Made by a program: the position numbers and the translations under genes. A model generated the notes under the pieces. It saw only the letters and a list, made by a program, of their open reading frames with translations, ran no database searches and had not been told where the DNA came from. Shown one piece after another: positions 6,412 through 41,896 of a stretch of 61,153 nt of DNA. Origin of the DNA: Nemertoderma westbladi (lineage: Eukaryota > Animalia > Xenacoelomorpha); assembly GCA_032718475.1 (NCBI GenBank), contig JAUCBJ010006486.1, positions 1 to 61,153 of the forward strand, given 5' to 3'. Numbering within the stretch: position 1 is the first letter of the stretch; the number at the start of each line of letters is the position of its first letter.

Positions 6412-8715
6412 TATGATGAACGGGCGCAGGGATGGGAAAGTATGATGAACGGGCGCAGGGATGGGAAAGTATGATGAACGGGCGCAGGGATGGTAGAGTA
6501 TGATGAACGGGCGCAGGGATGGGAGAGTATGATGAACGGGCGCAGGGATGGGATAGTATGATGAACGGGCGCAGGGATGGGAAAGTATGATGAACGGGCG
6601 CAGGGATGGGAAAGTATGATGAACGGGCGCAGGGATGGAAAGTATGATGAACGGGCGCAGGGATGGGAAAGTATGATGAACGGGCGCAGGGATGGGAGAG
6701 TATGATGAACGGGCGCAGGGATGGGAGAGTATGATGAACGGGCGCAGGGATGGGAAAGTATGATGAACGGGCGCAGGGATGGGATAGTATGATGAACGGG
6801 CGCAGGTATGGGAGAGTATGATGAACGGGCGCAGGGATGGGAATGTATGATGAACGGGCGCAGGGATGGGAGAGTATGATGAACGGGCGCAGGGATGGGA
6901 GAGTATGATGAACGGGCGCAGGGATGGGAGAGTATGATGAACGGGCGCAGGGATGGGAGAGTATGATGAACGAGCGCAGGGATGGGATAGTATGATGAAC
7001 GGGCGCAGGGATGGGAGAGTATGATGAACGGGCGCAGGGATGGGAAAGTATGATGAACGGGCGCAGGGATGGGATAGTATGATGAACGGGCGCAGGGATG
7101 GGAGAGTATGATGAACGGGCGCAGGGATGGGAATGTATGATGAACGGGCGCAGGGATGGGAGAGTATGATGAACGGGCGCAGGGATGGGAGAGTATGATG
7201 AACGGGCGCAGGGATGGGATAGTATGATGAACGGGCGCAGGGATGGGAAAGTATGATGAACGGGCGCAGGGATGGGAAAGTATGATGAACGGGCGCAGGG
7301 ATGGGAGAGTATGATGAACGGGCGCAGGGATGGGAGAGTATGATGAACGGGCGCAGGGATGGGATAGTATAATGAACGGGCGCAGGGATGGGAAAGTATG
7401 ATGAATGGGCGCAGGGATGGGATAGTATGATGAACGGGCGCAGGGATGGGAGAGTATAATGAACGGGCGCAGGGATGGGAAAGTATGATGAACGGGCGCA
7501 GGGATGGGAGAGTATGATGAACGGGCGCAGGGATGGGAAAGTATGACGAACGGGCGCAGGTATGGGAGAGTATGATGAACGGGCGCAGGGATGGGATAGT
7601 ATGATGAGCGGGCGCAGGGATGGGAAAGTATGATGAACGGGCGCAGGGATGGGATAGTATGATGAACAGGGGCAGGGATGGGAGAGTATGATGAACGGGC
7701 GCAGGGATGGGAAAGTATGATGAACGGGCGCAGGGATGGGAGAGTATGATGAACGGGCGCAGGGATGGGAAAGTATGATGAACGGGCGCAGGGATGGGAA
7801 AGTATGATGAACGGGCGCAGGGATGGGAGAGTATGATGAACGGGCGCAGGGATGGGAGAGTATGATGAACGGCGCAGGGATGGGATAGTATGATGAACGG
7901 GCGCAGGGATGGGAAAGTATGATGAACGGGCGCAGGGATGGGAAAGTATGATGAACGGGCGCAGGGATGGGAGAGTATGATGAACGGGCGCAGGGATGGG
8001 AGAGTATGATGAACGGGCGCAGGGATGGAAAAGTATGATGAACGGGCGCAGGGATGGGAAAGTATGATGAATGGGCGCAGGGATGGGAGAGTATGATGAA
8101 CGGGCGCAGGGATGGGAAAGTATGATGAACGGGCGCAGGGATGGGAAAGTATGATGAACGGGCGCAGGGATGGGAAAGTATGATGAACGGGCGCAGGGAT
8201 GGGAAAGTATGATGAACGGGCTCAGGGATGGGATAGTATGATGAACGGGCGCAGGGATGGGAGAGTATGATGAACGGGCGCAGGGATGGGAGAGTATGAT
8301 GTACGGGCGCATGGATGGGATAGTTAGTATGATGAACGGGCGCAGGGATGGGAAAGTATGATGAACGGGCGCAGGGATGGGAAAGTATGATGAACGGGCG
8401 CAGGGATGGGAAAGTATGATGAACGGGCGCAGGGATGGGAAAGTATGATGAACGGGCGCAGGGATGGGAGAGTATGATGAACGGGCGCAGGGATGGGAAA
8501 GTATGATGAACGGGCGCAGGGATGGGAAAGTATGATGAACGGGCGCAGGGATGGGAAAGTATGATGAACGGGCGCAGGGATGGGAAAGTATGATGAACGG
8601 GCGCAGGGATGGGAAAGTATGATGAACGGGCGCAGGTATGGGAAAGTATGATGAACGGGCGCAGGGATGGGAAAGTATGATGAACGGGCGCAGGGATGGG
8701 AGAGTATGATGAACG
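6412..8715. repeat. 29-bp G-rich minisatellite TATGATGAACGGGCGCAGGGATGGGA(A/G/T)AG, about 79 copies
   Basis: Unit starts at 6412, 6441, 6470; variation is mostly at one position; explains the repetitive 837- and 633-aa ORFs. Confidence 0.98.
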
Positions 8716-9065: not shown

Positions 9066-9132
9066 AACCCCATACATACTTTAAATGTTATCGGCGATGG
9101 CAACTGTTTTTTTCCCGCAATTGCATATGCTG
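9066..9132 (+). pseudogene. OTU-like cysteine protease remnant, 5' part (interrupted by E1)
   Basis: Reads ...LNVIGDGNCFFPAIAYA; GDGNC at 9093-9107 matches the OTU catalytic-Cys motif GDGNC(L/F)FRA. Confidence 0.72.
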
Positions 9133-9682
9133 TGTGACGGGATCCGAGAGGATCCCGGTTTATCCGGTGTTGTTTCGTACGCGTCCCCGCCGTGTGAATT
9201 AAAGAAAAGACTTTGTCGTTCTTCCAGTGTTATTGATAATATGTATATGAGATAGACGGAGTAATGCAGTAATGATAGCACAGTATACCGGTAGTGATAT
9301 GGTAGTATATATTGGTGACGGCGGTGATGGTCTTAACTGTCACCGTTCTGCCTGACTGTACTGAGATGACTGAATGAGTATTGCATCGACCGGTAATATA
9401 TATTGCACGGGTTTGGCCGTTACAGTACTTAGTCGATGCTGTCCCCCCATTGGCTAATATCCCTGTTGGCACCCTTTGCCCCCCTCTGAAGTGCTTCCCT
9501 TCGCCCTTGCTGTTCTCTCTTGGTTAGGGGTTTGGCCCCTGACCCTCCATTGTGTGTTTCTCCTTCCCTTCCCACTTTATTGGGGTAACACGAGGTTGAT
9601 ATTGGTAATCAACCTCGTGCTCCCAATATTGCTTAATGGCTCACTCTATGGGTTTGTGTTAGCGGAATTGGATAAGCTAACA
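9133..9682 (-). repeat. E1 3' LTR (550 bp)
   Basis: Direct repeat of 16087-16636; two substitutions seen by eye. Confidence 0.97.
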
Positions 9683-9691
9683 CTCCCCCCC
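9683..9691 (-). other. E1 polypurine tract (GGGGGGGAG, sense)
   Basis: Purine run abutting the 3' LTR start TGTTAG; identical in E2 (47594-47602). Confidence 0.9.
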
Positions 9692-10202
9692 ATGCTATCT
9701 TCCCGGTAAGAAGATAGCATCCAACTAAAGTGCGCTACAATTCCGCTGGAACTCGATCTATTATCGGGTGTGGGGTGGGGTTATTTTCTTGGAGTCGGCT
9801 TTCCAGGCCGCTCCCTATGGGTATGATGTCACTACCCTCTGGCGTCTCGTGTCGGGCCGATCGTGCGCTTCTCTCACACAATTTTTGTTTCCCCAACACT
9901 CTCGCCACTCTAACTTCGCTCTCTAACTCAACTCGCTCTCTCCCCACTCTTACACTCTCCCCACACCTGAATCGCACTCTAACTTCTCGCCAACAGCTCT
10001 TCTCACTATCTCCTCTCTACTCTCTGCCACTCCCTAAGGCCCTAATCTCTAATGCTACCCCTGTGCTATCATACTATCTACCTTATCTAAGGTCTAACTT
10101 GCTAACTATCTAACTTCTCTAACTCTAACTAACTCCTAACTCTACTAAGTCTACTAACTCTTTTCTAACTCTGACTAAAATCCTCCAACTAACTCTATCT
10201 CT

Positions 10203-10810
10203 ATCTACGTGGCGCTAACGGTGCCCACAACCACAACCGGTACTACGTACCCTCTTACTAACTCTATCTCCATCTACGTGGCGCTAACGGTGCCCACAAC
10301 CACAACCGGTACTACGTACCCTCTTACTAACTCTACCTCCATCTACGTGGCGCTAACGGTGCCCACAACCACAACCGGTACTACGTACCCTCTTACTAAC
10401 TCTACCTCCATCTACGTGGCGCTAACGGTGCCCACAACCACTCTACTACTGCTTCTACTCTGCTGGCACCCTATGTGCCCGTCTCTACCACTCTACTCTA
10501 TCTACATCTCCACCTCCACTAATACCTCTATCTACGTGGCGCTTGCGGTGCCCACAACCACTCCCTGCTACTACTTTCTACGTGGCGCTTGTGGTGCCCA
10601 CAACCACTCTCTTGCTACTTTCTACGTGGCGCTTCCGGTGCCCACAACCACTCTCTGCGACTACTTTCTACGTGGCGCTTCCGGTGCCCACAACCACTCT
10701 CTTGCTACTACTTTCTACGTGGCGCTTCCGGTGCCCACAACCCCTCTCTTACTACTTTCTACGTGGCGCTAACGGTGCCCACAACCCCTCTACCACTGCT
10801 ACTTTCTACT
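10203..10810. repeat. E1 3' UTR repeats (69-bp units, then shorter units sharing CTACGTGGCGCT..CGGTGCCCACAACC)
   Basis: Core motif recurs about 10 times; related copies occur in E2. Confidence 0.9.
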
Positions 10811-11303: not shown

Positions 11304-13163
11304 CTATTGTCCTCCTGACACTTCACCAGACACTCCTCCGGAGTGTTGTCCCCCGGACACCCCGCCGTCCGCTCCGCTTCCGTCTCCATACCGATGCTTG
11401 CTGGGAAACCTACTCTCCTCTGCCCACTTTCTTACTGTCACCTCCCTATCTGGCTCTACTATCTCTCGTTTCTCCTCTACTTCCTCTGCGTCTTCGGTGC
11501 CTGGTATCATGCACCCAGATGTCTCTGTCACACTGCATGGGATGTTGGTTTTAACTGGGCCGCTAAGCGTCCATCCGAACGGCGTGAGGATCGCCGTCGG
11601 GTCCCGCTGCCTGTCTTCGCCGAAGACCGTCTTCCTTCTCTCATGGGCCGTCGGGCAGTCCATCCCTACTATAATGGACACCTTCCTAACGTCCACCTTT
11701 GGTATTGAGAAATCGATACCGTCCAGGAATCTATATTGTTTGACCTCAATGTTGGTTGGTCGCCTGGCGTTGATGTTTATCGATTCTATGACGTGGATGG
11801 GGTCGATCGTCGCCCCATAGTCATATCCCGGTGCAATCGCTGCTATCCTGCACCGCCCCGCCCTCGTTTCCAGGACCTCATCTTTACTCGAGACGGTAGT
11901 CACCGCCATTCTATTCGGCCTTGTCTTTAGCCCTATCTCTTCGGCCACCCAGTTCTCCACCAGCGTGAAGGCTGCTCCGCTGTCGACCAGCATTAACGTC
12001 GTTACTGATCGACCACCCTCTCCTGATATCTTTACTGGTACTACCCCGAGTAGTACTTTTCTCTTCTTCTCCTCTTCTGTCGTGCTTGTGGCCATTGCCT
12101 GGCCTCCAGTCTCGGACTCTCTAACTGCTGTTTCTCTACACTCTCCGGACCTGTGTCCTTCTACCACACATCGATGACATAGTCCGTTTGCGTCTGTGTA
12201 GGCTATACGATCTTGTTTGGGCAACGCTTGCCAGTGCTTACAACTCCTGGTCTTATGTGTTCCATCCCGATGTAATTGACATTCGAATCCTGGATTATAG
12301 CGTTCCCTGTATAGTCCCTCACGTATCGCGCCTAGGTTTATATGTACCGATTTAGTGTTTTGGTTGTCTGTATTCGGCCTACTGGGTATATTGGGATTAT
12401 GTTTATTTATGGTGTTATTTTCTTTCTGTCCCCGCCACGGTGTGGCCCTGCTACCAGCTAACTGTGGACTAGCAGTCCCCTGTGTGGCCGCATGTGGTAG
12501 TGATTGTCCTACTCTCGGGAGTGGATCTGCAGGATCGTGTTCGGGTTTATGGCTTGTCCCCAAACTATCCTCGCTATAGACTGGGTCTGTTATTAATTCG
12601 GCTTCATAGTTGAGGAAGCTCGACATTTCTTCTAGGCCCGGTTCCGCACCTTTCTTCTCACGTGTGGAGAAAGCGATTTTCCTCCACTTCCTTCGTAACC
12701 AGATCGGCAGTGCCTGCGCTATCGTGGTGATGTTGTTAGACGCGTTGAGTTCGTATGGTGCGTCTAGCGTCTTTAACACGATTAACGCCTTCTCGACCTT
12801 GTTTGCAAAGGTCCTTATGCTAACGGGATTGTCCTGTAGGCCATCCGATGTTATGCCTCTCAGGGTTTGCCGGATGATCTTGGCCGGGTGCCCGTATTCC
12901 CTATCTAGCGCCCGCCATGCTGTCGTGAAGCCGCCCTCGATGCCCTGGTATTGCCTCACGATGTCGTATGCTGGGCCTCCTGTATATACTTGCAGATATT
13001 TTAGGCACTCCGCCTGCGTCAAGTTCTTACTTAATATTTCGTTACTATACATGCGCCGAAACTGTAGATATTCTTCCGGCCTACTCCCATCGAATTTAAA
13101 TGGTTCCACAGGTGGTAACTCGATCCTAGTTTTTAACGCATCGATCAATGTGGCCATTCCCAT
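11304..13163 (-). CDS. BEL/Pao Gag core, zinc knuckles and aspartic protease (E1)
   Basis: DUF1759-like block (FKFDGS..EYLQF..LKYLQVYTGGPA..AWRALDREYG), knuckles CQLHRDGTHKTRSC and CHRCVVEGHRSGEC, protease LVDSGA, BEL motif AILTPFGWTLSGP. Confidence 0.9.
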   Translation of the reverse strand: MGMATLIDALKTRIELPPVEPFKFDGSRPEEYLQFRRMYSNEILSKNLTQAECLKYLQVYTGGPAYDIVRQYQGIEGGFTTAWRALDREYGHPAKIIRQTLRGITSDGLQDNPVSIRTFANKVEKALIVLKTLDAPYELNASNNITTIAQALPIWLRRKWRKIAFSTREKKGAEPGLEEMSSFLNYEAELITDPVYSEDSLGTSHKPEHDPADPLPRVGQSLPHAATQGTASPQLAGSRATPWRGQKENNTINKHNPNIPSRPNTDNQNTKSVHINLGAIREGLYRERYNPGFECQLHRDGTHKTRSCKHWQALPKQDRIAYTDANGLCHRCVVEGHRSGECRETAVRESETGGQAMATSTTEEEKKRKVLLGVVPVKISGEGGRSVTTLMLVDSGAAFTLVENWVAEEIGLKTRPNRMAVTTVSSKDEVLETRAGRCRIAAIAPGYDYGATIDPIHVIESININARRPTNIEVKQYRFLDGIDFSIPKVDVRKVSIIVGMDCPTAHERRKTVFGEDRQRDPTAILTPFGWTLSGPVKTNIPCSVTETSGCMIPGTEDAEEVEEKREIVEPDREVTVRKWAEESRFPSKHRYGDGSGADGGVSGGQHSGGVSGEVSGGQ

Positions 13164-13174
13164 CGCTTGCGCTT

Positions 13175-16024
13175 CTAATGGGTTCGATGGATGTTGTATA
13201 GACTCCCTATTGGGTGCGGTCCGTCCGTCCTATCTGTTGTTGACTTTGCTTGTTGCGTCGGATATATCATTGGGGGTAACGGCCCCCTCCATATTTCCGT
13301 GTCGCACGATCTGTTCTCGTCCAAGGGGTTCGATGTTCTCGCTCCTATTGGGGTATATTGTTGATATTGTGATGGGGGAATGTCACCCTGTCCCCCCCCC
13401 ACCGGTATGTTTGGTACTGGGGTTGATGTTAATATATTGGGGCCCATACATCTATCTGCAATAATTCCCCCCTCCCCTGGATATATGTTGTGTCCCTGGA
13501 AATTATAGTCATGCTGCTGTACCGGTACCGATATAGGCCTATCTCACTTCTTGCCTACCTACCGGTATGTACTCCGCGACTTCCGGGTTTAATCCCGTCG
13601 TCCGCGCTACCCTATCGCCTACTCTATCTCTCCCAGCATGGCCTATAATAGTATGTGCAGTAAGGCCTACAGTATGTCCTGCAGTCTGCATGTGCCCTTC
13701 CGAACCGAAGTTTATTCTTCGCGAATCTCGAATCTCCCCGCGACTACCGTACTCTCGATCGGCAGCTATATCACGTCGGGAAGTTTCCCTTCGATCCCCT
13801 ATCCTGCTCTCGTCTTCGTATCGGTACATCCTGTACCCCTCTCTTAGCGTGTCGGTGCGTTTCTCCGGGGCGACGGCAATCTCCCGAAGTCCGACCCCAC
13901 TGACTCCCTAATTCCCTCTCTACTATCGACGGCTCGCTATCCATCCTCGCTCTCCGGTTGCTCCTAGCAACGACTCTTCTACTATCTTCCCTTCTTCTCT
14001 CTTCGACCTCTCGGTTAAACTCTGCTAATCTTCTTCTATCTTCGACCTCTCTATTATACTCTACTAATCTTCTCCTATCTTCGACCTCTCTATTAAACTC
14101 TACTAATCTTCTCTCTTCTGACTGGGCTCGACGTTCCGTCGCCCGCCCTCTCGCGACGTCAACCTGTCTCTCTCTGCTCGATCGCACGCCGCTGGGGATA
14201 CTCGCAATCCCCCTATTACTCTCCGTCGCCGGGTGTTGCGGTTTACCTAATTCGGCCCGCGCATTATCCGCCGACGCCTGTGGGACACTCTCTGCCCCCC
14301 CTCTCTCGCTACTAATCTCTCGCGGTGGGGTGCCCGTAGCCCCCCCCCCCCACCCGCCACTTCTAACTTCACTATCTCTTACTACACTTCTGCGTCCCTC
14401 TTGTCGGACACTCTCTACCCCCTTTCTCTCGCCACTAATCTTCTGTGGTGGGGCGCCCGTAGCCCCCCCCCCCCACCCGCCACTTCTAACTTCAATATCT
14501 CTTACTTCGTCTCTACACCCCTCTCTAGTCGACACACTGTCTCTACTGCGGCCGGGTCTATTCACCCCCGCCTCTCTCTCTACTACTGCGTGGCCTACCA
14601 GGCCCACCTCGGGTTGGCTCAACCGCGCCACTTCCTGCCTACTAACTACGTGGCCTACCAGGCCGCCGTCGGGTTGGCGCAACCCCGCCACTTCCTGCCT
14701 ACTAACTACGTGGCCTACCAGGCCGCCGTCTGCCGGGCTATACACGTCTGACGCGTTCACATTAATAGCACCATTCCCAATATTATTTGTTAAATCAATT
14801 AAATTATTAGAATTTGAAATGGGATTATTATTTAAATTATTTAAGTTAGAATTATTATTATTTTCAAAATTTAAATTGCTATTCGAATTATTTGAATTAT
14901 TTTGATTATTCTGAATATTTGAATTAATATTATTATTTGAATTTAAACTTAAATTACTACTACCGGGTAAAATATTTCCTGTAATAAAGGGATTAGGGTT
15001 ATTTACTACGGTACTATTAATACCAACATTTCCTAACGTACTACTACTACCCCCCTCGCCCGTACGGTTGCTGTACGTACTGTAAGTGTACCGCACGCTC
15101 TGTTCTCTTGCCTCACGCTCTTCGCGTTCACTCTCTTGCTCCTTCCCTCTCCCCATTATCCGGCTCTAATTCTTTCACCCTTAATTTATATGCCAGGCGT
15201 TCACTCTCTCGCACCCGTCTTTCTTTTGCGGAGGATGTAGCAGACTTATCGGTTGCGACGGACTTCCGCCGCCCCTCCGTCCTACTAACTTTCCCCCGTT
15301 TTCCGGGGTCCTCGCTGACCGACGAGGCCGAATCCTCGGAGCTAACCTCGGATTCGCCCTCGTGCGGTCCCGCCCAACCCACTAACTTAACTTCCCTGGC
15401 ATCGACTAAGTATGGCCCTATGTACACTACACCAGGCCCCATACCCCTACGTTCCCATAGCCCAAACAGTTCGAAGGCAACCCCTCTCGCTCTCTCCTCG
15501 GCCAGTTCTCCCTGCCCAGAACGCACTAGGTAATCAAAGTATCTGTTCGACTCACCTAGTCGTCTCCTCAACTTCACCTGGTCTATCTCAGCCCCTCCTC
15601 TAGCTTCCTTCAGTTGTTCCCGGGTCGCGGCGTAGGCTCGTCGGAGCCGGACGACCCCGACGTCCTCGTCGTCGACATCTCCTCTCTCCCTCTGGGTTCG
15701 GCGTCGTACCGTCGGCTCCACCGTTGCCGTTCCGGTGGGCCGTCCGTCGCCCTCGGCCTGTGGCTGACCGGCGACATCGGTATATCGACCACCGTCGTGT
15801 GTCGACTCGTATCTCTCCTCCCCCGTCTCGCTCTCTCCTCTACTCGACTCGCTCTCTCGCTGTAGACGACCCCCCACATCTTGGTTCGCCGGGTTGCTCG
15901 TTATCGACGTGGTCGACGTAGCATCGACCGGCGTCGTGGGTCCGTATCGTCTCGCCGTGGCCTCGCGGATCGTTAGATCGTCGTCCGGGGTCCGCGGCGG
16001 TGTCGCTTCTCCTCCTCTACTCAT
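13175..16024 (-). pseudogene. E1 Gag N-terminal region, low complexity, broken into several frames
   Basis: ORFs 15128-16024, 13771-15156, 13539-13829 and 13175-13447 are collinear with the E2 ORFs; Asn-rich, Arg/Glu-rich and GGLVGHVV repeats. Confidence 0.8.
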
Positions 16025-16086
16025 CTTCGTCTTCTGTGTTCTGTCTGTGTCTGGCAGTTACAGTTCGGCAGGCCTAGAGTTAAGAC

Positions 16087-16636
16087 TGTGACGGGATCCG
16101 AGAGGATCCCGGTTTATCCGGTGTTGTTTCGTACGCGTCCCCGCCGTGTGAATGAAAGAAAAGAGTTTGTCGTTCTTCCAGTGTTATTGATAATATGTAT
16201 ATGAGATAGACGGAGTAATGCAGTAATGATAGCACAGTATACCGGTAGTGATATGGTAGTATATATTGGTGACGGCGGTGATGGTCTTAACTGTCACCGT
16301 TCTGCCTGACTGTACTGAGATGACTGAATGAGTATTGCATCGACCGGTAATATATATTGCACGGGTTTGGCCGTTACAGTACTTAGTCGATGCTGTCCCC
16401 CCATTGGCTAATATCCCTGTTGGCACCCTTTGCCCCCCTCTGAAGTGCTTCCCTTCGCCCTTGCTGTTCTCTCTTGGTTAGGGGTTTGGCCCCTGACCCT
16501 CCATTGTGTGTTTCTCCTTCCCTTCCCACTTTATTGGGGTAACACGAGGTTGATATTGGTAATCAACCTCGTGCTCCCAATATTGCTTAATGGCTCACTC
16601 TATGGGTTTGTGTTAGCGGAATTGGATAAGCTAACA
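16087..16636 (-). repeat. E1 5' LTR (550 bp)
   Basis: Sense TGTTAG...GTCACA; gag ATG at 16024 follows a 62-nt leader. Confidence 0.97.
16323..16356 (-). promoter_or_regulatory. Putative E1 LTR core promoter (TATA-like plus Inr-like TCATTCAGT)
   Basis: TATATA (16351-16356) about 25 nt upstream of TCATTCAGT (16331-16323); same arrangement in the diverged E2 LTR. Confidence 0.55.
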
Positions 16637-16641
16637 TGCTG

Positions 16642-16800
16642 TATGTGGCTGGGAAATACTTTATTCTACTTTTCGCAAGAAACTGAGATTATTCATGAAT
16701 TCCAAGCGCACTAACTTGGGTTGGACTGGTTCCTCTGATTACATCAAGTTACTATCGGGATTATTTGGACTCTATACATACTGTAAATCTAACTATTTAA
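16642..16800 (+). pseudogene. OTU-like cysteine protease remnant, 3' part
   Basis: Removing E1 and one TSD joins the frame into ...AYAVCGWEILYSTFRKKLRLFMNSKRTNLGWTGSSDYIKLLSGLF, consistent with the OTU helices after the Cys motif. Confidence 0.6.
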
Positions 16801-17354: not shown

Positions 17355-20300
17355 GGATTCATTTAAACCCAGAGACGTCTTTGAATCCTACAGTAGGTTG
17401 TATTGAATCCCGTTGATCAACGGATTCATTTAAACCCAGAGACGTCTTTGAAACCTACAGTAGGTTGTATTGAATCCCGTTGATCAACGGATTCATTTAA
17501 ACCCAGAGACGTCTTTGAAACCTACAGTAGGTTGTATTGAATCCCGTTGATCAACGGATTCATTTAAACCCAGAGACGTCTTTGAAACCTACAGTAGGTT
17601 GCATTGAATCCCGTTGATCAACGGATTCATTTAAACCCTGAGACGTCTTTGAATCCTACAGTAGGTTGTATTGAATCCCGTTGATCAACGGATTCATTTA
17701 AACCCAGAGACGTCTTTGAAACCTACAGTAGGTTGTATTGAATCCCGTTGATCAACGGATTCATTTAAACCCAGAGACGTCTTTGAAACCTACAGTAGGT
17801 TGTATTGAATCCCGTTGATCAACGGATTCATTTAAACCCAGAGACGTCTTTGAATCCTACAGTAGGTTGTATTGAATCCCGTTGATCAACGGATTCATTT
17901 AAACCCAGAGACGTCTTTGAAACCTACAGTAGGTTGTATTGAATCCCGTTGATCAACGGATTCATTTAAACCCTGAGACGTCTTTGAATCCTACAGTAGG
18001 TTGTATTGAATCCCGTTGATCAACGGATTCATTTAAACCCAGAGACGTCTTTGAAACCTACAGTAGGTTGTATTGAATCCCGTTGATCAACGGATTCATT
18101 TAAACCCAGAGACGTCTTTGAAACCTACAGTAGGTTGGATTGAATCCCGTTGATCAACGGATTCATTTAAACCTAGAGACGTCTTTGAAACCTACAGTAG
18201 GTTGTATTGAATCCCGTTGATCAACGGATTCATTTAAACCCAGAGACGTCTTTGAAACCTACAGTAGGTTGTATTGAATCCCGTTGATCAAGGGATTCAT
18301 TTAAACCCAGAGATGTCTTTGAAACCTACAGTAGGTTGTATTGAATCCCGTTGATCAACGGATTCATTTAAACCCAGAGACGTCTTTGAAACCTACAGTA
18401 GGTTGTATTGAATCCCGTTGATCAACGGATTCATTTAAACCCAGAGACGTCTTTGAAACCTAGAGTAGGTTGTATTGAATCCCGTTGATCAAGGGATTCA
18501 TTTAAACCCAGAGACGTCTTTGAATCCTACAGTAGGTTGTATTGAATCCCGTTGATCAACGGATTCATTTAAACCCAGAGACGTCTTTGAAACCTACAGT
18601 AGGTTGTATTGAATCCCGTTGATCAAGGGATTCATTTAAACCCAGAGACGTCTTTGAAACCTACAGTAGGTTGTATTGAATCCCGTTGATCAACGGATTC
18701 ATTTAAACCCAGAGACGTCTTTGAAACCTACAGTAGGTTGTACTGAATCCCGTTGATCAAGGGATTCATTTAAACCCAGAGACGTCTTTGAAACCTACAA
18801 TAGGTTGTATTGAATCCCGTTGATCAACGGATTCATTTAAACCCAGAGACGTCTTTGAAACCTACAGTAGGTTGTATTGAATCCCGTTGATCAACGGATT
18901 CATTTAAACCCAGAGACGTCTTTGAAACCTACAGTAGGTTGTATTGAATCCCGTTGATCAACGGATTCATTTAAACCCAGAGACGTCTTTGAAACCTACA
19001 GTAGGTTGGATTGAATCCCGTTGATCAACGGATTCATTTAAACCCAGAGACGTCTTTGAAACCTACAGTAGGTTGTATTGAATCCCGTTGATCAACGGAT
19101 TCATTTAAACCCAGAGACGTCTTTGAAACCTACAGTAGGTTGGATTGAATCCCGTTGATCAACGGATTCATTTAAACCCAGAGACGTCTTTGAAACCTAC
19201 AGTAGGTTTTGTATTGAATCCCGTTGATCAACGGATTCATTTAAACCCAGAGACGTCTTTGAAACCTACAGTAGGTTGTATTGAATCCCGTTGATCAAGG
19301 GATTCATTTAAACCCAGAGACGTCTTTGAAACCTACAATAGGTTGTATTGAATCCCGTTGATCAACGGATTCATTTAAACCCAGAGACGTCTTTGAAACC
19401 TACAGTAGGTTGTATTGAATCCCGTTGATCAACGGATTCATTTAAACCCAGAGACTGCTTTGAAACCTAAAGTAGGTTGTATTGAATCCCGTTGATCAAC
19501 GGATTCATTTAAACCCAGAGACGTCTTTGAAACCTACAGTAGGTTGTATTGAATCCCGTTGATCAACGGATTCATTTAAACCCAGAGACGTCTTTGAAAC
19601 CTACAGTAGGTTGTATTGAATCCCGTTGATCAACGGATTCATTTAAACCCAGAGACGTCTTTGAAACCTACAGTAGGTTGTATTGAATCCCGTTGATCAA
19701 CGGATTCATTTAAACCCAGAGACGTCTTTGAAACCTACAGTAGGTTGTATTGAATCCCGTTGATCAACGGATTCATTTAAACCCAGAGACGTCTTTGAAA
19801 CCTACAGTAGGTTGGATTGAATCCCGTTGATCAACGGATTCATTTAAACCCAGAGACGTCTTTGAAACCTACAGTAGGTTGTATTGAATCCCGTTGATCA
19901 ACGGATTCATTTAAACCCAGAGACGTCTTTGAAACCTACAGTAGGTTGGATTGAATCCCGTTGATCAACGGATTCATTTAAACCCAGAGACGTCTTTGAA
20001 ACCTACAGTAGGTTGGATTGAATCCCGTTGATCAACGGATTCATTTAAACCCAGAGACGTCTTTGAAACCTACAGTAGGTTGTATTGAATCCCGTTGATC
20101 AACGGATTCATTTAAACCCAGAGACGTCTTTGAAACCTACAGTAGGTTGTATTGAATCCCGTTGATCAACGGATTCATTTAAACCCAGAGACGTCTTTGA
20201 AACCTACAGTAGGTTGTATTGAATCCCGTTGATCAACGGATTCATTTAAACCCAGAGACGTCTTTGAAACCTACAGTAGGTTGTATTGAATCCCGTTGAT

Positions 20301-23300
20301 CAACGGATTCATTTAAACCCAGAGACGTCTTTGAAACCTACAGTAGGTTGTATTGAATCCCGTTGATCAACGGATTCATTTAAACCCAGAGACGTGCTTT
20401 GAAACCTACAGTAGGTTGTATTGAATCCCGTTGATCAACGGATTCATTTAAACCCAGAGACGTCTTTGAAACCTACAGTAGGTTGTATTGAATCCCGTTG
20501 ATCAACGGATTCATTTAAACCCAGAGACGTCTTTGAAACCTACAGTAGGTTGTATTGAATCCCGTTGATCAACGGATTCATTTAAACCCAGAGACGTCTT
20601 TGAAACCTACAGTAGGTTGTATTGAATCCCGTTGATCAACGGATTCATTTAAACCCAGAGACGTCTTTGAAACCTACAGTAGGTTGTATTGAATCCCGTT
20701 GATCAATGGATTCATTTAAACCCAGAGACGTCTTTGAATCCTACAGTAGGTTGTATTGAATCCCGTTGATCAACGGATTCATTTAAACCCAGAGACGTCT
20801 TTGAAACCTACAGTAGGTTGTATTGAATCCCGTTGATCAACGGATTCATTTAAACCCAGAGACGTCTTTGAAACCTACAGTAGGTTGTATTGAATCCCGT
20901 TGATCAATGGATTCATTTAAACCCAGAGACGTCTTTGAATCCTACAGTAGGTTGTATTGAATCCCGTTGATCAACGGATTCATTTAAACCCAGAGACGTC
21001 TTTGAAACCTACAGTAGGTTGTATTGAATCCCGTTGATCAACGGATTCATTTAAACCCAGAGACGTCTTTGAAACCTACAGTAGGTTGTATTGAATCCCG
21101 TTGATCAACGGATTCATTTAAACCCAGAGACGTCTTTGAATCCTACAGTAGGTTGTATTGAATCCCGTTGATCAACGGATTCATTTAAACCCAGAGACGT
21201 CTTTGAAACCTACAGTAGGTTGTATTGAATCCCGTTGATCAACGGATTCATTTAAACCCAGAGACGTCTTTGAAACCTACAGTAGGTTGTATTGAATCCC
21301 GTTGATCAAGGGATTCATTTAAACCCAGAGACGTCTTTGAAACCTACAGTAGGTTGTATTGAATCCCGTTGATCAACGGATTCATTTAAACCCAGAGACG
21401 TCTTTGAAACCTACAGTAGGTTGTATTGAATCCCGTTGATCAAGGGATTCATTTAAACCCAGAGACGTCTTTGAATCCTACAGTAGGTTGTATTGAATCC
21501 CGTTGATCAACGGATTCATTTAAACCCAGAGACGTCTTTGAAACCTACAGTAGGTTGTATTGAATCCCGTTGATCAAGGGATTCATTTAAACCCAGAGAC
21601 GTCTTTGAAACCTACAGTAGGTTGTATTGAATCCCGTTGATCAACGGATTCATTTAAACCCAGAGACGTCTTTGAAACCTACAGTAGGTTGTATTGAATC
21701 CCGTTGATCAACGGATTCATTTAAACCCAGAGACGTCTTTGAAACCTACAGTAGGTTGTATTGAATCCCGTTGATCAACGGATTCATTTAAACCCAGAGA
21801 CGTCTTTGAAACCTACAGTAGGTTGTATTGAATCCCGTTGATCAACGGATTCATTTAAACCCAGAGACGTCTTTGAAACCTACAGTAGGTTGTATTGAAT
21901 CCCGTTGATCAACGGATTCATTTAAACCCAGAGACGTCTTTGAAACCTACAGTAGGTTGTATTGAATCCCGTTGATCAACGGATTCATTTAAACCCAGAG
22001 ACGTCTTTGAAACCTACAGTAGGTTGTATTGAATCCCGTTGATCAACGGATTCATTTAAACCCAGAGACGTCTTTGAAACCTACAGTAGGTTGTATTGAA
22101 TCCCGTTGATCAACGGATTCATTTAAACCCAGAGACGTCTTTGAAACCTACAGTAGGTTGTATTGAATCCCGTTGATCAACGGATTCATTTAAACCCAGA
22201 GACGTCTTTGAAACCTACAGTAGGTTGTATTGAATCCCGTTGATCAACGGATTCATTTAAACCCAGAGACGTCTTTGAAACCTACAGTAGGTTGTATTGA
22301 ATCCCGTTGATCAACGGATTCATTTAAACCCAGAGACGTCTTTGAAACCTACAGTAGGTTGTATTGAATCCCGTTGATCAACGGATTCATTTAAACCCAG
22401 AGACGTGCTTTGAAACCTACAGTAGGTTGTATTGAATCCCGTTGATCAACGGATTCATTTAAACCCAGAGACGTCTTTGAAACCTACAGTAGGTTGTATT
22501 GAATCCCGTTGATCAACGGATTCATTTAAACCCAGAGACGTCTTTGAAACCGACAGTAGGTTGTATTGAATCCCGTTGATCAACGGATTCATTTAAACCC
22601 AGAGACGTGCTTTGAAACCTACAGTAGGTTGTATTGAATCCCGTTGATCAACGGATTCATTTAAACCCAGAGACGTCTTTGAAACCTACAGTAGGTTGTA
22701 TTGAATCCCGTTGATCAACGGATTCATTTAAACCCAGAGACGTCTTTGAAACCTACAGTAGGTTGTATTGAATCCCGTTGATCAACGGATTCATTTAAAC
22801 CCAGAGACGTCTTTGAAACCTACAGTAGGTTGTATTGAATCCCGTTGATCAACGGATTCATTTAAACCCAGAGACGTCTTTGAAACCTACAGTAGGTTGT
22901 ATTGAATCCCGTTGATCAACGGATTCATTTAAACCCAGAGACGTCTTTGAAACCTACAGTAGGTTGTATTGAATCCCGTTGATCAAGGGATTCATTTAAA
23001 CCCAGAGACGTCTTTGAAACCTACAGTAGGTTGTATTGAATCCCGTTGATCAACGGATTCATTTAAACCCAGAGACGTCTTTGAAACCTACAGTAGGTTG
23101 TATTGAATCCCGTTGATCAACGGATTCATTTAAACCCAGAGACGTCTTTGAAACCTACAGTAGGTTGTATTGAATCCCGTTGATCAACGGATTCATTTAA
23201 ACCCAGAGACGTCTTTGAAACCTACAGTAGGTTGGATTGAATCCCGTTGATCAACGGATTCATTTAAACCCAGAGACGTCTTTGAAACCTACAGTAGGTT

Positions 23301-26300
23301 GTATTGAATCCCGTTGATCAACGGATTCATTTAAACCCAGAGACTGCTTTGAAACCTACAGTAGGTTGTATTGAATCCCGTTGATCAACGGATTCATTTA
23401 AACCCAGAGACGTCTTTGAAACCTACAGTAGGTTGTATTGAATCCCGTTGATCAACGGATTCATTTAAACCCAGAGACGTCTTTGAAACCTACAGTAGGT
23501 TGTATTGAATCCCGTTGATCAACGGATTCATTTAAACCCAGAGACGTCTTTGAAACCTACAGTAGGTTGTATTGAATCCCGTTGATCAACGGATTCATTT
23601 AAACCCAGAGACTGCTTTGAAACCTGCAGTAGGTTGTATTGAATCCCGTTGATCAACGGATTCATTTAAACCCAGAGACGTCTTTGAAACCTACAGTAGG
23701 TTGTATTGAATCCCGTTGATCAACGGATTCATTTAAACCCAGAGACGTCTTTGAAACCTACAGTAGGTTGTATTGAATCCCGTTGATCAACGGATTCATT
23801 TAAACCCAGAGACGTCTTTGAAACCTACAGTAGGTTGTATTGAATCCCGTTGATCAACGGATTCATTTAAACCCAGAGACGTCTTTGAAACCTACAGTAG
23901 GTTGTATTGAATCCCGTTGATCAACGGATTCATTTAAACCCAGAGACGTCTTTGAAACCTACAGTAGGTTGTATTGAATCCCGTTGATCAAGGGATTCAT
24001 TTAAACCCAGAGACGTCTTTGAAACCTACAGTAGGTTGTATTGAATCCCGTTGATCAACGGATTCATTTAAACCCAGAGACGTCTTTGAAACCTACAGTA
24101 GGTTGTATTGAATCCCGTTGATCAACGGATTCATTTAAACCCAGAGACGTCTTTGAAACCTACAGTAGGTTGTATTGAATCCCGTTGATCAACGGATTCA
24201 TTTAAACCCAGAGACGTCTTTGAAACCTACAGTAGGTTGGATTGAATCCCGTTGATCAACGGATTCATTTAAACCCAGAGACGTCTTTGAAACCTACAGT
24301 AGGTTGTATTGAATCCCGTTGATCAACGGATTCATTTAAACCCAGAGACGTCTTTGAAACCTACAGTAGGTTGGATTGAATCCCGTTGATCAACGGATTC
24401 ATTTAAACCCAGAGACGTCTTTGAAACCTACAGTAGGTTGTATTGAATCCCGTTGATCAACGGATTCATTTAAACCCAGAGACGTCTTTGAAACCTACAG
24501 TAGGTTGTATTGAATCCCGTTGATCAAGGGATTCATTTAAACCCAGAGACGTCTTTGAAACCTACAGTAGGTTGTATTGAATCCCGTTGATCAACGGATT
24601 CATTTAAACCCAGAGACGTCTTTGAAACCGACAGTAGGTTGTATTGAATCCCGTTGATCAACGGATTCATTTAAACCCAGAGACTGCTTTGAAACCTACA
24701 GTAGGTTGTATTGAATCCCGTTGATCAACGGATTCATTTAAACCCAGAGACGTCTTTGAAACCTACAGTAGGTTGTATTGAATCCCGTTGATCAACGGAT
24801 TCATTTAAACCCAGAGACGTCTTTGAAACCGACAGTAGGTTGTATTGAATCCCGTTGATCAACGGATTCATTTAAACCCAGAGACTGCTTTGAAACCTAC
24901 AGTAGGTTGTATTGAATCCCGTTGATCAACGGATTCATTTAAACCCAGAGACGTCTTTGAAACCTACAGTAGGTTGTATTGAATCCCGTTGATCAACGGA
25001 TTCATTTAAACCCAGAGACGTCTTTGAAACCTACAGTAGGTTGTATTGAATCCCGTTGATCAACGGATTCATTTAAACCCAGAGACGTCTTTGAAACCTA
25101 CAGTAGGTTGTATTGAATCCCGTTGATCAACGGATTCATTTAAACCCAGAGACGTCTTTGAAACCTACAGTAGGTTGTATTGAATCCCGTTGATCAACGG
25201 ATTCATTTAAACCCAGAGACGTCTTTGAAACCTACAGTAGGTTGTATTGAATCCCGTTGATCAACGGATTCATTTAAACCCAGAGACTGCTTTGAAACCT
25301 ACAGTAGGTTGTATTGAATCCCGTTGATCAACGGATTCATTTAAACCCAGAGACGTCTTTGAAACCTACAGTAGGTTGTATTGAATCCCGTTGATCAACG
25401 GATTCATTTAAACCCAGAGACGTCTTTGAAACCTACAGTAGGTTGTATTGAATCCCGTTGATCAACGGATTCATTTAAACCCAGAGACGTCTTTGAAACC
25501 TACAGTAGGTTGTATTGAATCCCGTTGATCAACGGATTCATTTAAACCCAGAGACGTGCTTTGAAACCTACAGTAGGTTGTATTGAATCCCGTTGATCAA
25601 CGGATTCATTTAAACCCAGAGACGTCTTTGAAACCTACAGTAGGTTGTATTGAATCCCGTTGATCAACGGATTCATTTAAACCCAGAGACGTCTTTGAAA
25701 CCTACAGTAGGTTGTATTGAATCCCGTTGATCAACGGATTCATTTAAACCCAGAGACGTCTTTGAAACCTACAGTAGGTTGTATTGAATCCCGTTGATCA
25801 ACGGATTCATTTAAACCCAGAGACGTCTTTGAAACCTACAGTAGGTTGTATTGAATCCCGTTGATCAACGGATTCATTTAAACCCAGAGACGTCTTTGAA
25901 ACCTACAGTAGGTTGGATTGAATCCCGTTGATCAACGGATTCATTTAAACCCAGAGACGTCTTTGAAACCTACAGTAGGTTGTATTGAATCCCGTTGATC
26001 AACGGATTCATTTAAACCCAGAGACGTCTTTGAAACCTACAGTAGGTTGGATTGAATCCCGTTGATCAACGGATTCATTTAAACCCAGAGACGTCTTTGA
26101 AACCTACAGTAGGTTGGATTGAATCCCGTTGATCAACGGATTCATTTAAACCCAGAGACGTCTTTGAAACCTACAGTAGGTTGTATTGAATCCCGTTGAT
26201 CAACGGATTCATTTAAACCCAGAGACGTCTTTGAAACCTACAGTAGGTTGTATTGAATCCCGTTGATCAACGGATTCATTTAAACCCAGAGACGTCTTTG

Positions 26301-29191
26301 AAACCTACAGTAGGTTGTATTGAATCCCGTTGATCAACGGATTCATTTAAACCCAGAGACGTCTTTGAAACCTACAGTAGGTTGTATTGAATCCCGTTGA
26401 TCAACGGATTCATTTAAACCCTGAGACGTCTTTGAAACCTACAGTAGGTTGTATTGAATCCCGTTGATCAACGGATTCATTTAAACCCAGAGACTGCTTT
26501 GAAACCTACAGTAGGTTGTATTGAATCCCGTTGATCAACGGATTCATTTAAACCCAGAGACGTCTTTGAAACCTACAGTAGGTTGTATTGAATCCCGTTG
26601 ATCAACGGATTCATTTAAACCCAGAGACGTCTTTGAAACCTACAGTAGGTTGTATTGAATCCCGTTGATCAACGGATTTATTTAAACCCAGAGACGTCTT
26701 TGAAAACTACAGTAGGTTGTATTGAATCCCGTTGATCAATGGATTCATTTAAACCCAGAGACGTCTTTGAATCCTACAGTAGGTTGTATTGAATCCCGTT
26801 GATCAACGGATTCATTTAAACCCAGAGACGTCTTTGAAACCTACAGTAGGTTGTATTGAATCCCGTTGATCAACGGATTCATTTAAACCCAGAGACGTCT
26901 TTGAAAACTACAGTAGGTTGTATTGAATCCCGTTGATCAATGGATTCATTTAAACCCAGAGACGTCTTTGAATCCTACAGTAGGTTGTATTGAATCCCGT
27001 TGATCAACGGATTCATTTAAACCCAGAGACGTCTTTGAAACCTACAGTAGGTTGTATTGAATCCCGTTGATCAAGGGATTCATTTAAACCCAGAGACGTC
27101 TTTGAAACCTACATTAGGTTGTATTGAATCCCGTTGATCAATGGATTCATTTAAACCCAGAGACGTCTTTGAATCCTACAGTAGGTTGTATTGAATCCCG
27201 TTGATCAACGGATTCATTTAAACCCAGAGACGTCTTTGAAACCTACAGTAGGTTGTATTGAATCCCGTTGATCAACGGATTCATTTAAACCCAGAGACGT
27301 CTTTGAAACCTACAGTAGGTTGTATTGAATCCCGTTGATCAAGGGATTCATTTAAACCCAGAGACGTCTTTGAAACCTACAGTAGGTTGTATTGAATCCC
27401 GTTGATCAACGGATTCATTTAAACCCAGAGACGTCTTTGAAACCTACAGTAGGTTGTATTGAATCCCGTTGATCAAGGGATTCATTTAAACCCAGAGACG
27501 TCTTTGAAACCTACAGTAGGTTGTATTGAATCCCGTTGATCAACGGATTCATTTAAACCCAGAGACGTCTTTGAAACCTACAGTAGGTTGTATTGAATCC
27601 CGTTGATCAAGGGATTCATTTAAACCCAGAGACGTCTTTGAAACCTACAATAGGTTGTATTGAATCCCGTTGATCAACGGATTCATTTAAACCCAGAGAC
27701 GTCTTTGAAACCTACAGTAGGTTGTATTGAATCCCGTTGATCAACGGATTCATTTAAACCCAGAGACGTCTTTGAAACCTACAGTAGGTTGTATTGAATC
27801 CCGTTGATCAACGGATTCATTTAAACCCAGAGACTGCTTTGAAACCTACAGTAGGTTGTATTGAATCCCGTTGATCAACGGATTCATTTAAACCCAGAGA
27901 CGTCTTTGAAACCTACAGTAGGTTGTATTGAATCCCGTTGATCAACGGATTCATTTAAACCCAGAGACGTCTTTGAAACCTACAGTAGGTTGTATTGAAT
28001 CCCGTTGATCAACGGATTCATTTAAACCCAGAGACGTCTTTGAAACCTACAGTAGGTTGTATTGAATCCCGTTGATCAACGGATTCATTTAAACCCAGAG
28101 ACGTCTTTGAAACCTACAGTAGGTTGTATTGAATCCCGTTGATCAACGGATTCATTTAAACCCAGAGACGTCTTTGAAACCTACAGTAGGTTGTATTGAA
28201 TCCCGTTGATCAACGGATTCATTTAAACCCAGAGACGTCTTTGAAACCTACAGTAGGTTGTATTGAATCCCGTTGATCAACGGATTTATTTAAACCCAGA
28301 TACGTCTTTGAAACCTACAGTAGGTTGTATTGAATCCCGTTGATCAACGGATTTATTTAAACCCAGAGACGTCTTTGAAACCTACAGTAGGTTGTATTGA
28401 ATCCCGTTGATCAACGGATTTATTTAAACCTAGAGACGTCTTTGAAACCTACAGTAGGTTGTATTGAATCCCGTTGATCAACGGATTTATTTAAACCCAG
28501 AGACGTCTTTGAAACCTACAGTAGGTTGTATTGAATCCCGTTGATCAACGGATTCATTTAAACCCAGAGACGTCTTTGAAACCGACAGTAGGTTGTATTG
28601 AATCGCGTTGATCTACGGATTCATTTAAACCCAGAGACGTCTTTGAAACCTACAGTAGGTTGTATTGAATCCTGTTGATCAACGGATTCATTTAAACCCA
28701 GAGACGTCTTTGAAACCTACAGTAGGTTGTATTGAATCCCGTTGATCAACGGATTCATTTAAACCCAGAGACGTCTTTGAAACCGACAGTAGGTTGTATT
28801 GAATCGCGTTGATCTACGGATTCATTTAAACCCAGAGACGTCTTTGAAACCTACAGTAGGTTGTATTGAATCCTGTTGATCAACGGATTCATTTAAACCC
28901 AGAGACGTCTTTGAAACCTACAGTAGGTTGTATTGAATCCCGTTGATCAAGGGATTCATTTAAACCCAGAGACGTCTTTGAAACCTACAGTAGGTTGTAT
29001 TGAATCCCGTTGATCTACGGATTCATTTAAACCCAGAGACGTCTTTGAAACCTACAGTAGGTTGTATTGAATCCCGTTGATCAACGGATTCATTTAAACC
29101 CAGAGACGTCTTTGAATCCTACAGTAGGTTGTATTGAATCCCGTTGATCAACGGATTCATTTAAACCCAGAGACGTCTTTGAAACCTACAG
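17355..29191. repeat. 67-bp satellite, block 1 (about 176 copies)
   Basis: Unit GGATTCATTTAAACCCAGAGACGTCTTTGAAACCTACAGTAGGTTGTATTGAATCCCGTTGATCAAC; starts at 17355, 17422, 17489; highly homogeneous. Confidence 0.99.
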
Positions 29192-30442: not shown

Positions 30443-31030
30443 CAGACACTGGTGCAGACATTGATGCAGACAGTGGTGCAGACAGTGGTGCAGAAACAGT
30501 GGTGCAGACACTGGTGCATACAGTGGTGCAGACCGTGGTGCAAACTGTGGTGCAGACAGTGGTGCAGACAGTGGTGCAAACACTGGTGCAGACAGTGGTG
30601 CAGATACTGGAGCAGACACTGGTGCAGGTGCAGACAATGGTGCAGACACCTGGTGCAGACACTGGTGCAGACAGTGGTGCAGACAGTGGTGCAAACTCTG
30701 GTGCAGACAGTGGTGCAAACACTGGTGCAGACAGTGGTGCAGACAGTGGTGCAGACAGTGGTGCAGACAGTGGTGCAAACACTGGTGCAGACAGTGGTGC
30801 AAACACTGGTGCAGGCAGTGGTGCAGACAGTGGCGCAGACAGTGGTGCAGAACGTGGTGCAGACAGTGGTGTAGACAGTGGTGCCGATAGTGGTGCAAAC
30901 ACTGGGCAGACAGTGGTGCAGATACTGGAGGAGACACTGGTACAGACAATGGTGCAGACACCTGGTGCAGACACTGGTGCAGACAATGGTGCAGACACCT
31001 GGTGCAGACACTGGTGTAAACCAGACATGG
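30443..31030. repeat. 12-bp minisatellite (CAGACAGTGGTG), about 48 copies
   Basis: Direct periodicity; source of the QTVV/GADS/CTTV pseudo-ORFs. Confidence 0.97.
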
Positions 31031-41194: not shown

Positions 41195-41732
41195 TGTTAG
41201 CTTATCCAATTCCGCTAACACAAACCCATAGAGTGGGCCATAAAGCAATATTGGGAGCACGAGGTTGATTACCAATCAACCTCGTGTCAGCCCAGTAAAC
41301 GGGGACAATAGGCCCCAAAGGAGACACACACAATAGAGGTCAGGGGCCAAACCCCTAACCGAGAGAGAACACAGGGAGTGAAGGGAAACACTCCAAAGGG
41401 TGCCAACAGGGATATCAACCAATCAGAGGGGGGAAAGGCATCGATTGAGTAGCAATAAGGCCACCGTGCAATATAACCAGTAACCTGTAATCATATCATT
41501 CAGTTTACTCAGTTAGTTCAGTAGGGTGGAACGGTGACTTCTATCACCGTCCGCTACCGCCATCATACTTATCTACCGGTAACTGTGCCATACTATACTA
41601 TAGCCTATATATCAACTATATTATACCTTATACATATAACCGAACATCAGAACTCTTTTACCTTTCACACACGGCGGGGACGCGTAGATAGAAAACCCAA
41701 CGGATAAACCGGGATCCGTAGATCCCGTCACA
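41195..41732 (+). repeat. E2 5' LTR (538 bp)
   Basis: TGTTAG...GTCACA; one substitution seen versus the 3' LTR. Confidence 0.97.
41472..41504 (+). promoter_or_regulatory. Putative E2 LTR core promoter (TATAA plus TCATTCAGT)
   Basis: TATAA 41472-41476 and Inr-like 41496-41504; positionally conserved with E1. Confidence 0.55.
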
Positions 41733-41896
41733 GTGACAGAACTAGTTCCACCCAGCTGCCCTGAAAGTGACAGAATCAGATCCGCCCAGCTGCCCTGACA
41801 GAGATAGAATCTTAGCAGCTGCCCTAACAGTCTGACAGTGATAGAACTGGATCCAACCAACTGACAGACTGTGGCTGCCAGACACCAAAGACGACG

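Follow-up and report, generated by a model that had tools for sequence, protein, structure and literature searches.

A 61,153-nucleotide stretch of Nemertoderma westbladi DNA (assembly GCA_032718475.1, contig JAUCBJ010006486.1, positions 1 to 61,153; hereafter the window, with coordinates on its forward strand) contains two related long terminal repeat (LTR) elements, E1 and E2, in each of which the primer-binding site (PBS) position pairs with a 9-nt segment inside the element's own LTR. This pairing, and the probable self-priming of reverse transcription to which it points, are the subject of the present analysis.

E1 lies on the minus strand, an orientation fixed by the polypurine tract GGGGGGGAG (9683..9691) that adjoins its 3' LTR. 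Its LTRs of 550 bp each, the 5' copy at 16087..16636 and the 3' copy at 9133..9682, have TG...CA ends, align over 550/550 positions with two mismatches (+16154 and +16165 in the 5' copy), and are flanked by the 5-bp target-site duplication TGCTG (16637..16641, second copy at 9128-9132). The sense end of the 5' LTR reads ...CCCGTCACA, with the terminal CA, and the leader follows at once. E2 lies on the plus strand; its 538-bp 5' LTR (41195..41732) is 74% identical to that of E1 by LTR alignment, its 3' LTR (47603-48140) differs from the 5' copy by one mismatch, and its target-site duplication is CACGT. LTR termini of the two elements are alike (TGTTAGC...CCCGTCACA), and the interiors share 77-93% identity, with deletions. 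With LTR identities of 99.6-99.8% and intact 5-bp target duplications in both E1 and E2, the copies carrying these PBSs transposed recently.

Several further features are common to the two elements. The first 26 nt are identical in all four LTRs (16611-16636, 9657-9682, 41195-41220 and 47603-47628); they form a 7-bp inverted repeat (TGTTAGC-12 nt-GCTAACA) and are the deepest-covered part of the family in contigs of sequencing runs. Another inverted repeat, GATGCTATCTTC ... GAAGATAGCATC, is conserved just upstream of the polypurine tract in E1 (9692-9722) and E2 (47563-47593). Tandem repeats with periods of 69, 44/90 and 38 occupy the 3' non-coding part of both elements, from the protease to the polypurine tract (10188-10809 and 45651-46900).

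E1 encodes a 641-aa open reading frame (ORF) of BEL/Pao type, identified by Pfam and protein alignment, that comprises gag (DUF1759) and an aspartic protease (11307..13229, minus strand). Ahead of it are two ORFs of 309 and 464 aa, neither with a Pfam match, which span 13774-16057 (minus) in E1 and have an E2 counterpart at 41828-44800 (plus) with 82-84% DNA identity; the first of them (309 aa), which begins 62 nt past the LTR, has many charged residues. No reverse transcriptase (RT), no RNase H and no integrase is present downstream of the gag-protease ORF of E1, and the Peptidase_A17 region and DUF5641 are also absent from E1 and E2. For the gag-protease ORF, exhaustive scanning with HMMER gave 2851 homologues at E <=1e-3, the best with ~31% identity, and six long homologues were examined with Pfam. 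All five full-length ones (1741-1940 aa) had BEL/Pao architecture, with Peptidase_A17, Integrase_H2C2 and DUF5641 in 5/5 and DUF1759 at E <=1e-5 in 4/5; the sixth (1389 aa) had DUF1759 and Peptidase_A17. Three BEL/Pao polyproteins aligned to E1 over the gag-protease part alone (+ 11505-13199) and nowhere to E2. Word-based protein searches with the same ORF gave no match at E <=1e-5 in the longer range and none at E <=1e-3 in the near range. A Ty3/gypsy-type gag-pol is not what E1 carries, given the DUF1759 match and the BEL/Pao homologues of its gag-protease ORF. Judged by its coding content, E1 is a non-autonomous element, because RT, RNase H and integrase are missing, and a deletion derivative of BEL/Pao kind; the same applies to E2.

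Pairing between the PBS position and the LTR

The PBS position of E1, with the sense sequence GTCTTAACT, directly follows the 5' LTR (16078..16086, minus strand). Its complement is contiguous in the LTR, where the sense sequence AGTTAAGAC occupies LTR nt 345-353 (16284..16292, minus strand; also 9330-9338 in the 3' LTR), and the two segments pair at 9/9 positions. In the helix so formed (H1) the LTR 9-mer, which is the proposed 3' end of a self-primer, is the 5' strand and the PBS the 3' strand. Between the first 80 leader nt and the 550-nt LTR of E1, AGTTAAGAC is the sole exact complement of at least 8 nt. This complementarity had been noticed in a first-pass annotation of the window, whose sequence statements all hold, and the observation is confirmed. 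The chance level of about 0.2% given there is correct arithmetic (542/262144 = 0.21% at uniform composition); 200,000 composition-keeping LTR shuffles gave 0.32% (P 0.0032).

In a MAFFT alignment of the R-U5-leader regions, the LTR and PBS 9-mers of E1 fall on TTCTATCAC (41539..41547, plus strand) and GTGACAGAA (41733..41741, plus strand) of E2. These also pair, at 8/9 positions with one A-C mismatch, and five of the nine pairs are changed on both sides relative to E1. Within the E2 LTR, TTCTATCAC is the sole match to the E2 PBS with at most one mismatch, and matches of at least 8/9 at such a pre-fixed site are expected by chance in 28/262144 cases (~1e-4, by arithmetic). The sequences around the 9-mers are conserved between E1 and E2 (LTR, CGGTGAC...C; boundary, CACA...CTAG), and the PBS 9-mers themselves differ at 6/9 positions. 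The E1 PBS has no partner with at most two mismatches in the E2 LTR, and the E2 PBS has none at the homologous site of E1. Since neither PBS finds a partner in the LTR of the other element, the 9-mers appear to be subfamily-specific addresses set between conserved flanks, with each subfamily holding its own matched pair. That the pairing should be kept in other copies of the family was borne out in E2, in different letters (8/9, with five double changes), for the one copy compared and with its one mismatch.

H1 is exactly 9 bp long in both elements, the next possible pairs on either side being C-A and C-C, and it ends in both exactly where the final base of the LTR meets the first internal one. 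This boundary register is where the 3' end of a primer must sit.

Two further helices join the same regions of LTR and leader upstream of H1, with gaps of 6-9 nt between helices. Gaps of this size leave no room for an intron, and with the complement contiguous in the LTR we reject a primer that spans a splice junction. H2, located 6-9 nt upstream of H1, pairs GGCAG (16302..16306, minus strand) with CTGCC of the E1 leader (16067..16071, minus strand), in columns homologous to H2 of E2. There its 5' strand GGGTGGAAC (41524..41532, plus strand) is a perfect complement of GTTCCACCC in the leader (41745-41753), paired at 9/9 positions and the sole exact complement of at least 8 nt in E2; two pairs in the homologous columns are changed on both sides. 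H3 lies further upstream and pairs CAGTACAGT (16309..16317, minus strand) with ACTGTAACTG of the E1 leader (16055..16064, minus strand), with one bulge. We scored 18 named pairs on the E1/E2 alignment against six slid controls and 500 shuffles. The named structure had 88.9% of its cells paired, compared with 27.8-36.1% in the slid controls, and 0/500 shuffles reached this value. Seven pairs were changed on both sides (five in H1 and two in H2), a number matched by 4/500 shuffles; the slid controls had 0-1.

An unguided RNAalifold run on the two sequences returned H3 (outer, CAGU), H2, 8/9 pairs of H1, an inner CCGCC/GGCGG helix and a U5 hairpin, in a consensus of 37 pairs, ten of them with double changes. 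The predicted 5' fragment of the RNA binds 45 nt of PBS and leader with -33.1 (E1) and -33.2 (E2) kcal/mol, compared with averages of -14.1 and -17.9 kcal/mol for shuffled leaders, of which 0/300 and 1/300 reached the observed values. In folding of the R-U5-leader, which had been suggested as a check, the consensus fold contains H1 at 8/9 pairs, and single-sequence folds do not contain it. The U5 hairpin (GGGATCC-TCTC-GGATCCC in E1, 16093..16110, minus strand) resembles a U5 inverted repeat, lies 6 nt upstream of the PBS, and is present in all folds with 7 bp in E1 and 6 bp in E2; its pairs (seven in E1) are invariant, with no covariation.

The E1 9-mer also sits in the 12-nt loop of a local hairpin, CGGTGA-12 nt-TCACCG (16276..16299, minus strand; arms CGGTGA at + 16294-16299 and TCACCG at + 16276-16281), as first described. 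The idea that this loop presents the primer segment fits E1 only and does not carry over to E2. The counterpart in E2 has a loop of 6 nt, with 4/9 primer nucleotides inside the 3' arm; the stem is invariant between E1 and E2, without covariation, and RNAalifold did not pick it, choosing the PBS helix instead. Because four primer nucleotides lie in the stem arm of E2, the local hairpin and H1 would be mutually exclusive alternatives.

The leader of E2 begins with four tandem PBS-like units of ~34 nt (41733..41880, plus strand; starts at 41733, 41767, 41801 and 41838). Units 1 and 2 start with GTGACAGAA and unit 3 with GAGATAGAA, each complementary to the LTR 9-mer at 8/9 positions. Unit 4 (41838), the innermost, which adjoins the leader part common to E1, starts with GTGATAGAA and is the sole perfect unit (9/9). 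The E1 leader has a single PBS-like unit. When the units were compared with the reverse complement of the predicted 5' fragment, the score of the E1 unit and of E2 units 1, 2 and 4 beat 500/500 shuffles; that of unit 3 was reached by 32/500.

TGG is missing from the 50 nt on each side of the LTR end of both elements, and for this reason a tRNA 3' end cannot serve as their primer. No tRNA gene was found in the window. An Rfam search of the window had no hit that reached the gathering score, and on + 15950-16650, which covers the LTR and leader of E1, a limit of E 1 gave no hit either. Neither element has the 18-nt tRNA-complementary PBS of BEL/Pao elements; what they have is complementarity to the own LTR (9/9 in E1, 8/9 in E2 and 9/9 in its unit 4), with a unique match there. 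E3, an unrelated BEL/Pao element in the window, has TGG at +3 (2-3 nt after the LTR), the usual start of a tRNA-type PBS, and its sole self-complement of at least 10 nt lies away from the boundary, 36 nt inside the leader.

Candidate self-priming and rival explanations

We consider that E1 and E2, whose 9-nt PBS pairs inside their own LTR, likely prime minus-strand DNA with their own RNA and not with a tRNA, and put the probability of this reading at roughly 0.6. The first-pass annotation had proposed that an LTR-internal segment pairs with the PBS and would self-prime, and this proposal is strongly supported by the covariation in E2, the boundary register and the lack of TGG.

The position of the segment within the RNA depends on a predicted start site. 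In E1 a candidate core promoter (16322..16356, minus strand) consists of the TATA motif TATATATT (16349-16356) and the initiator-like TCAGTC (16322-16327), whose A at + 16325 is 31 nt from the TATA; the E2 motifs are a TATA at 41472-41477 and an initiator A at 41502, and TCAGTY follows 30-31 nt past the TATA in both. Counted from these motif starts, E1 would have its 9-mer at RNA nt 34-42 and its PBS at nt 240-248, and E2 would have them at nt 38-46 and nt 232-240. The primer segment is thus predicted to be internal (RNA nt 34-42 in E1), with the start 33-37 nt upstream of the 9-mer, so that it would not form the first nucleotides of the transcript as in Tf1. An earlier estimate of 30-40 nt past the initiator agrees with these motif positions, the initiator being a motif only; the associated claim of an internal primer, unlike that of Tf1, holds as a prediction from the conserved TATA/TCAGT spacing and from the covarying helices 5' of the 9-mer.

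We infer the following scheme for where transcription starts, how and by which enzyme the primer is cut, and how it is copied back. Transcription would start at the TCAGT initiator ~30 nt past the TATA, and the first 42-46 RNA nt would fold back on the PBS and leader through H1, H2 and H3, with the U5 hairpin beside the PBS. A cut at the 3' side of the 9-mer, possibly made by the RNase H of a helper element's RT by analogy with Tf1, would leave a 3'-OH paired with the first nucleotide past the LTR. The predicted primer is then a ~42-nt piece of element RNA ending in AGUUAAGAC and joined to DNA that starts at the last LTR base. The extended DNA would run through U5 and R as far as the cut. Once the first strand transfer had taken place, the 3' copy of R would supply RNA nt 1-42 without loss, as in the standard scheme of LTR replication. 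In Tf1 the self primer is reportedly not removed. If it is likewise retained here, plus-strand synthesis would copy it into the new PBS, and we propose that the two sites change together because of this copying. Copying that reads further into the primer may, in the same way, be the reason why the leader resembles the reverse complement of the RNA 5' end and is duplicated in E2. From the recent transposition of both elements it follows that the system works, and we infer that it does so with RT and RNase H given in trans by a helper outside the window.

A more far-reaching version, which we hold tentatively and at less than even odds, is that a BEL/Pao lineage has exchanged its tRNA for an internal self-primer, a 9-nt address ~40 nt into the RNA that is cut free and copied back in every cycle, which would give each subfamily a matched pair. 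The leader would then be the footprint of RT reading on into the retained primer, which could be the reason for both the three-helix complementarity and the four PBS units of E2.

Several observations weigh against self-priming. The comparison comprises two independent family members only, and the boundary PBS of E2 carries an A-C mismatch. Single-sequence minimum-energy folds contain the two outer helices and replace H1 by local alternatives; forcing H1 raises the energy by 2.1 (E1) and 8.3 (E2) kcal/mol. The primer duplex of 9 nt is short compared with the 11 nt of Tf1. With neither RT nor RNase H of their own, E1 and E2 need a helper, and the LTR ends of E3 differ from theirs. The TGG criterion covers tRNA 3' ends, and an internal fragment of a host tRNA as primer falls outside it. 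The sequencing runs that match the element are five DNA runs, none being on record as RNA, and the start, the cut and the primer are accordingly predictions.

No further members of the family came to light for comparison. In the window the only copies of the LTR are those four that bound E1 and E2; two conserved U5 blocks, used as an exact pattern, had 0 loci in metagenome contigs and 0 in viral contigs, and a protein-guided metagenome scan with an alignment of the 5' ORF yielded 191 pattern matches, 0 of them confirmed. The family is very abundant in DNA runs of the species (1547 contigs of run X1 on 691 nt), and contigs of four DNA runs across either 9-mer show no variant letter at a share of at least 3%. 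This is a weak test, which leaves the idea unrefuted and lends it weak support, as the contigs are ~70-150 nt long, cannot link both sites and are clipped where other PBS types begin. Many contigs diverge immediately after the boundary GT that they share; their loose ends, at ~+ 16085, have an agreement of 0.49-0.63. A 27-letter replacement between + 16095 and + 16079, reported in three runs, could not be interpreted.

Among other explanations, the R-to-leader structure may have a different task, for which packaging, dimerisation and the control of gag translation are candidates, and the primer may be something else, for instance a fragment from inside a tRNA. Comparable R-U5-leader domains occur in retroviruses and Ty elements, and in every fold such a domain is closed off by H2, H3 and the inner helix. 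However, such a role gives no need for a helix that stops exactly at the LTR boundary in both elements, and PBS 9-mers differing at 6/9 positions would call for two host primers, each tracked by the LTR. The absence of TGG, and of any tRNA-like Rfam match at E up to 1 on + 15950-16650, also argues against it, and we regard this explanation as unlikely. Chance complementarity has a very small probability in our judgement. A single 9-mer match in 550 bp would arise in ~0.2-0.3% of trials, and many LTR elements have presumably been read, but E2 has pairing in those very columns in different letters (~1e-4 for a site fixed beforehand), to which H2 adds.

The remaining two alternatives both involve priming by element RNA. 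The self-primer might be terminal as in Tf1, with transcription starting at the first base of the 9-mer (+ 16292 in E1) and the first 9 RNA nt as primer; this would put the upstream strands of H2 and H3 into U3, so that they occur at the RNA 3' end only and circularise the genome by pairing with the 5' leader. It is in keeping with this that the E1 9-mer begins at the A of a CAGT core and that known self-primers are 5'-terminal, according to the available text of PMC7175516 and PMC4600332. E2, however, lacks CAGT at the homologous base (GAC|TTCT), and no TATA stands ~30 nt upstream of the 9-mer; the conserved TATA is 64-67 nt upstream, with TCAGT 30-31 nt after it. A start at the 9-mer is therefore improbable. 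Quite improbable, too, is a historical footprint with no present function, in which the leader would be an old reverse-complement copy of R produced by a replication accident. The full-length resemblance of the leader units to the reverse complement of the predicted 5' fragment, and their duplication in E2, would fit such an origin, but a passive relic would decay independently at its two sites, whereas seven pairs have changed on both sides and are still paired, with conserved flanks. Moreover, this explanation itself presupposes that element RNA once primed at the site.

Neighbouring elements and relation to known systems

E3 (36596-60525, minus strand), in which E2 is nested, is a large BEL/Pao element of the autonomous kind. 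Its DUF1759, Peptidase_A17, Integrase_H2C2 and DUF5641 domains are located at 49496-56280, and its LTR copies at ~59617-60525 and 36596-38347, the latter broken by an 842-bp insert (36907-37748). RT, the Peptidase_A17 region, integrase and DUF5641 are all present in E3, and its LTR differs from those of E1 and E2. A tblastn comparison of E1 with E3 gave no match at E <=1e-3, which rules out E3 as a close relative or obvious helper of E1.

A 67-bp satellite starts ~700 bp beyond the 5' LTR of E1 and forms two blocks (17355-29191 and 32911-35008; 176.6 and 31.3 copies, 97-98% match), between which lies a 12-bp array (30443-31016). A 29-bp tandem array at 6412-8715 contains 79 copies with 95% match; long ORFs over it, with Ste5/DUF5845 Pfam matches (0 significant stretches), look like repeat artefacts.

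The Belpaoviridae profile of the International Committee on Taxonomy of Viruses describes, in the text available, priming by host tRNA at an 18-nt PBS complementary to tRNA-Arg or tRNA-Gly (PMC8742986). Like canonical BEL/Pao elements, E1 has a DUF1759 gag, an aspartic protease, TG...CA LTRs, a 5-bp target-site duplication and a polypurine tract by the 3' LTR; unlike them, E1 and E2 have no TGG and have a self-complementary PBS. They also resemble non-autonomous elements of the large retrotransposon derivative (LARD) and terminal-repeat retrotransposon in miniature (TRIM) types, which are mobilised in trans, in that the LTRs, PBS position, polypurine tract and target-site duplication are intact and RT and integrase are missing. 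E1 differs from TRIMs in keeping gag, protease and two ORFs; bivalve TRIMs are <1 kb, as far as the accessible part of PMC6934838 describes them.

The self-primed elements Tf1 and Tf2 of Schizosaccharomyces pombe and Tj1 of S. japonicus are Ty3/gypsy elements of the Tf1/sushi group. Tf1 priming uses the first 11 nt of its RNA, which pair with the PBS; the RNase H cut falls between nt 11 and nt 12, and a stem-loop in U5 is required, as given in the available portions of PMC7175516 and PMC4600332. By the same portions, E1 and E2 are like Tf1, Tf2 and Tj1 in lacking a tRNA-type PBS, in having a PBS complementary to the RNA of their own LTR, and in having a U5 stem-loop beside it. The yeast elements need a cut in the RNA duplex for the primer 3' end, according to what is accessible of these sources, and for E1 and E2 such a cut is suggested by analogy. 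Unlike the first 11 nt of Tf1, the 9-nt segment has predicted positions of nt 34-42 (E1) and nt 38-46 (E2), with two helices 5' of it, and the proteins are of BEL/Pao and not Ty3/gypsy lineage, with no RT or RNase H of their own.

Self-priming has also been predicted for the Tf1/sushi group as a whole, for the plant Tcn1 clade (Ty3/gypsy) and for the TAR lineage (Ty1/copia; for example Houba and Osr-1), as reported in the accessible text of PMC6317226. As described there for Tcn1 and TAR, E1 and E2 were recognised from complementarity of the PBS to the LTR and the lack of a tRNA-type match. Those lineages differ in belonging to other superfamilies and kingdoms, and the text available of PMC6317226 describes no internal primer or covarying multi-helix structure. 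In a literature search on BEL/Pao self-priming or PBS, no title or abstract start proposed self-priming in BEL/Pao.

Self-primed reverse transcription has been shown experimentally only in fission-yeast elements of the Tf1 type, in which the primer is the 5' end of the RNA. Annotation pipelines for LTR elements that require a tRNA PBS will miss or misjudge families such as the one described here. With an internal primer, the enzyme would have to locate and cut a site ~42 nt inside a structured RNA and not measure from the cap. If E1 and E2 do self-prime, the mechanism would have arisen in, or spread to, a third LTR superfamily, in animals, and the matched 9-mer pairs would constitute a natural system of subfamily-specific primer addresses.

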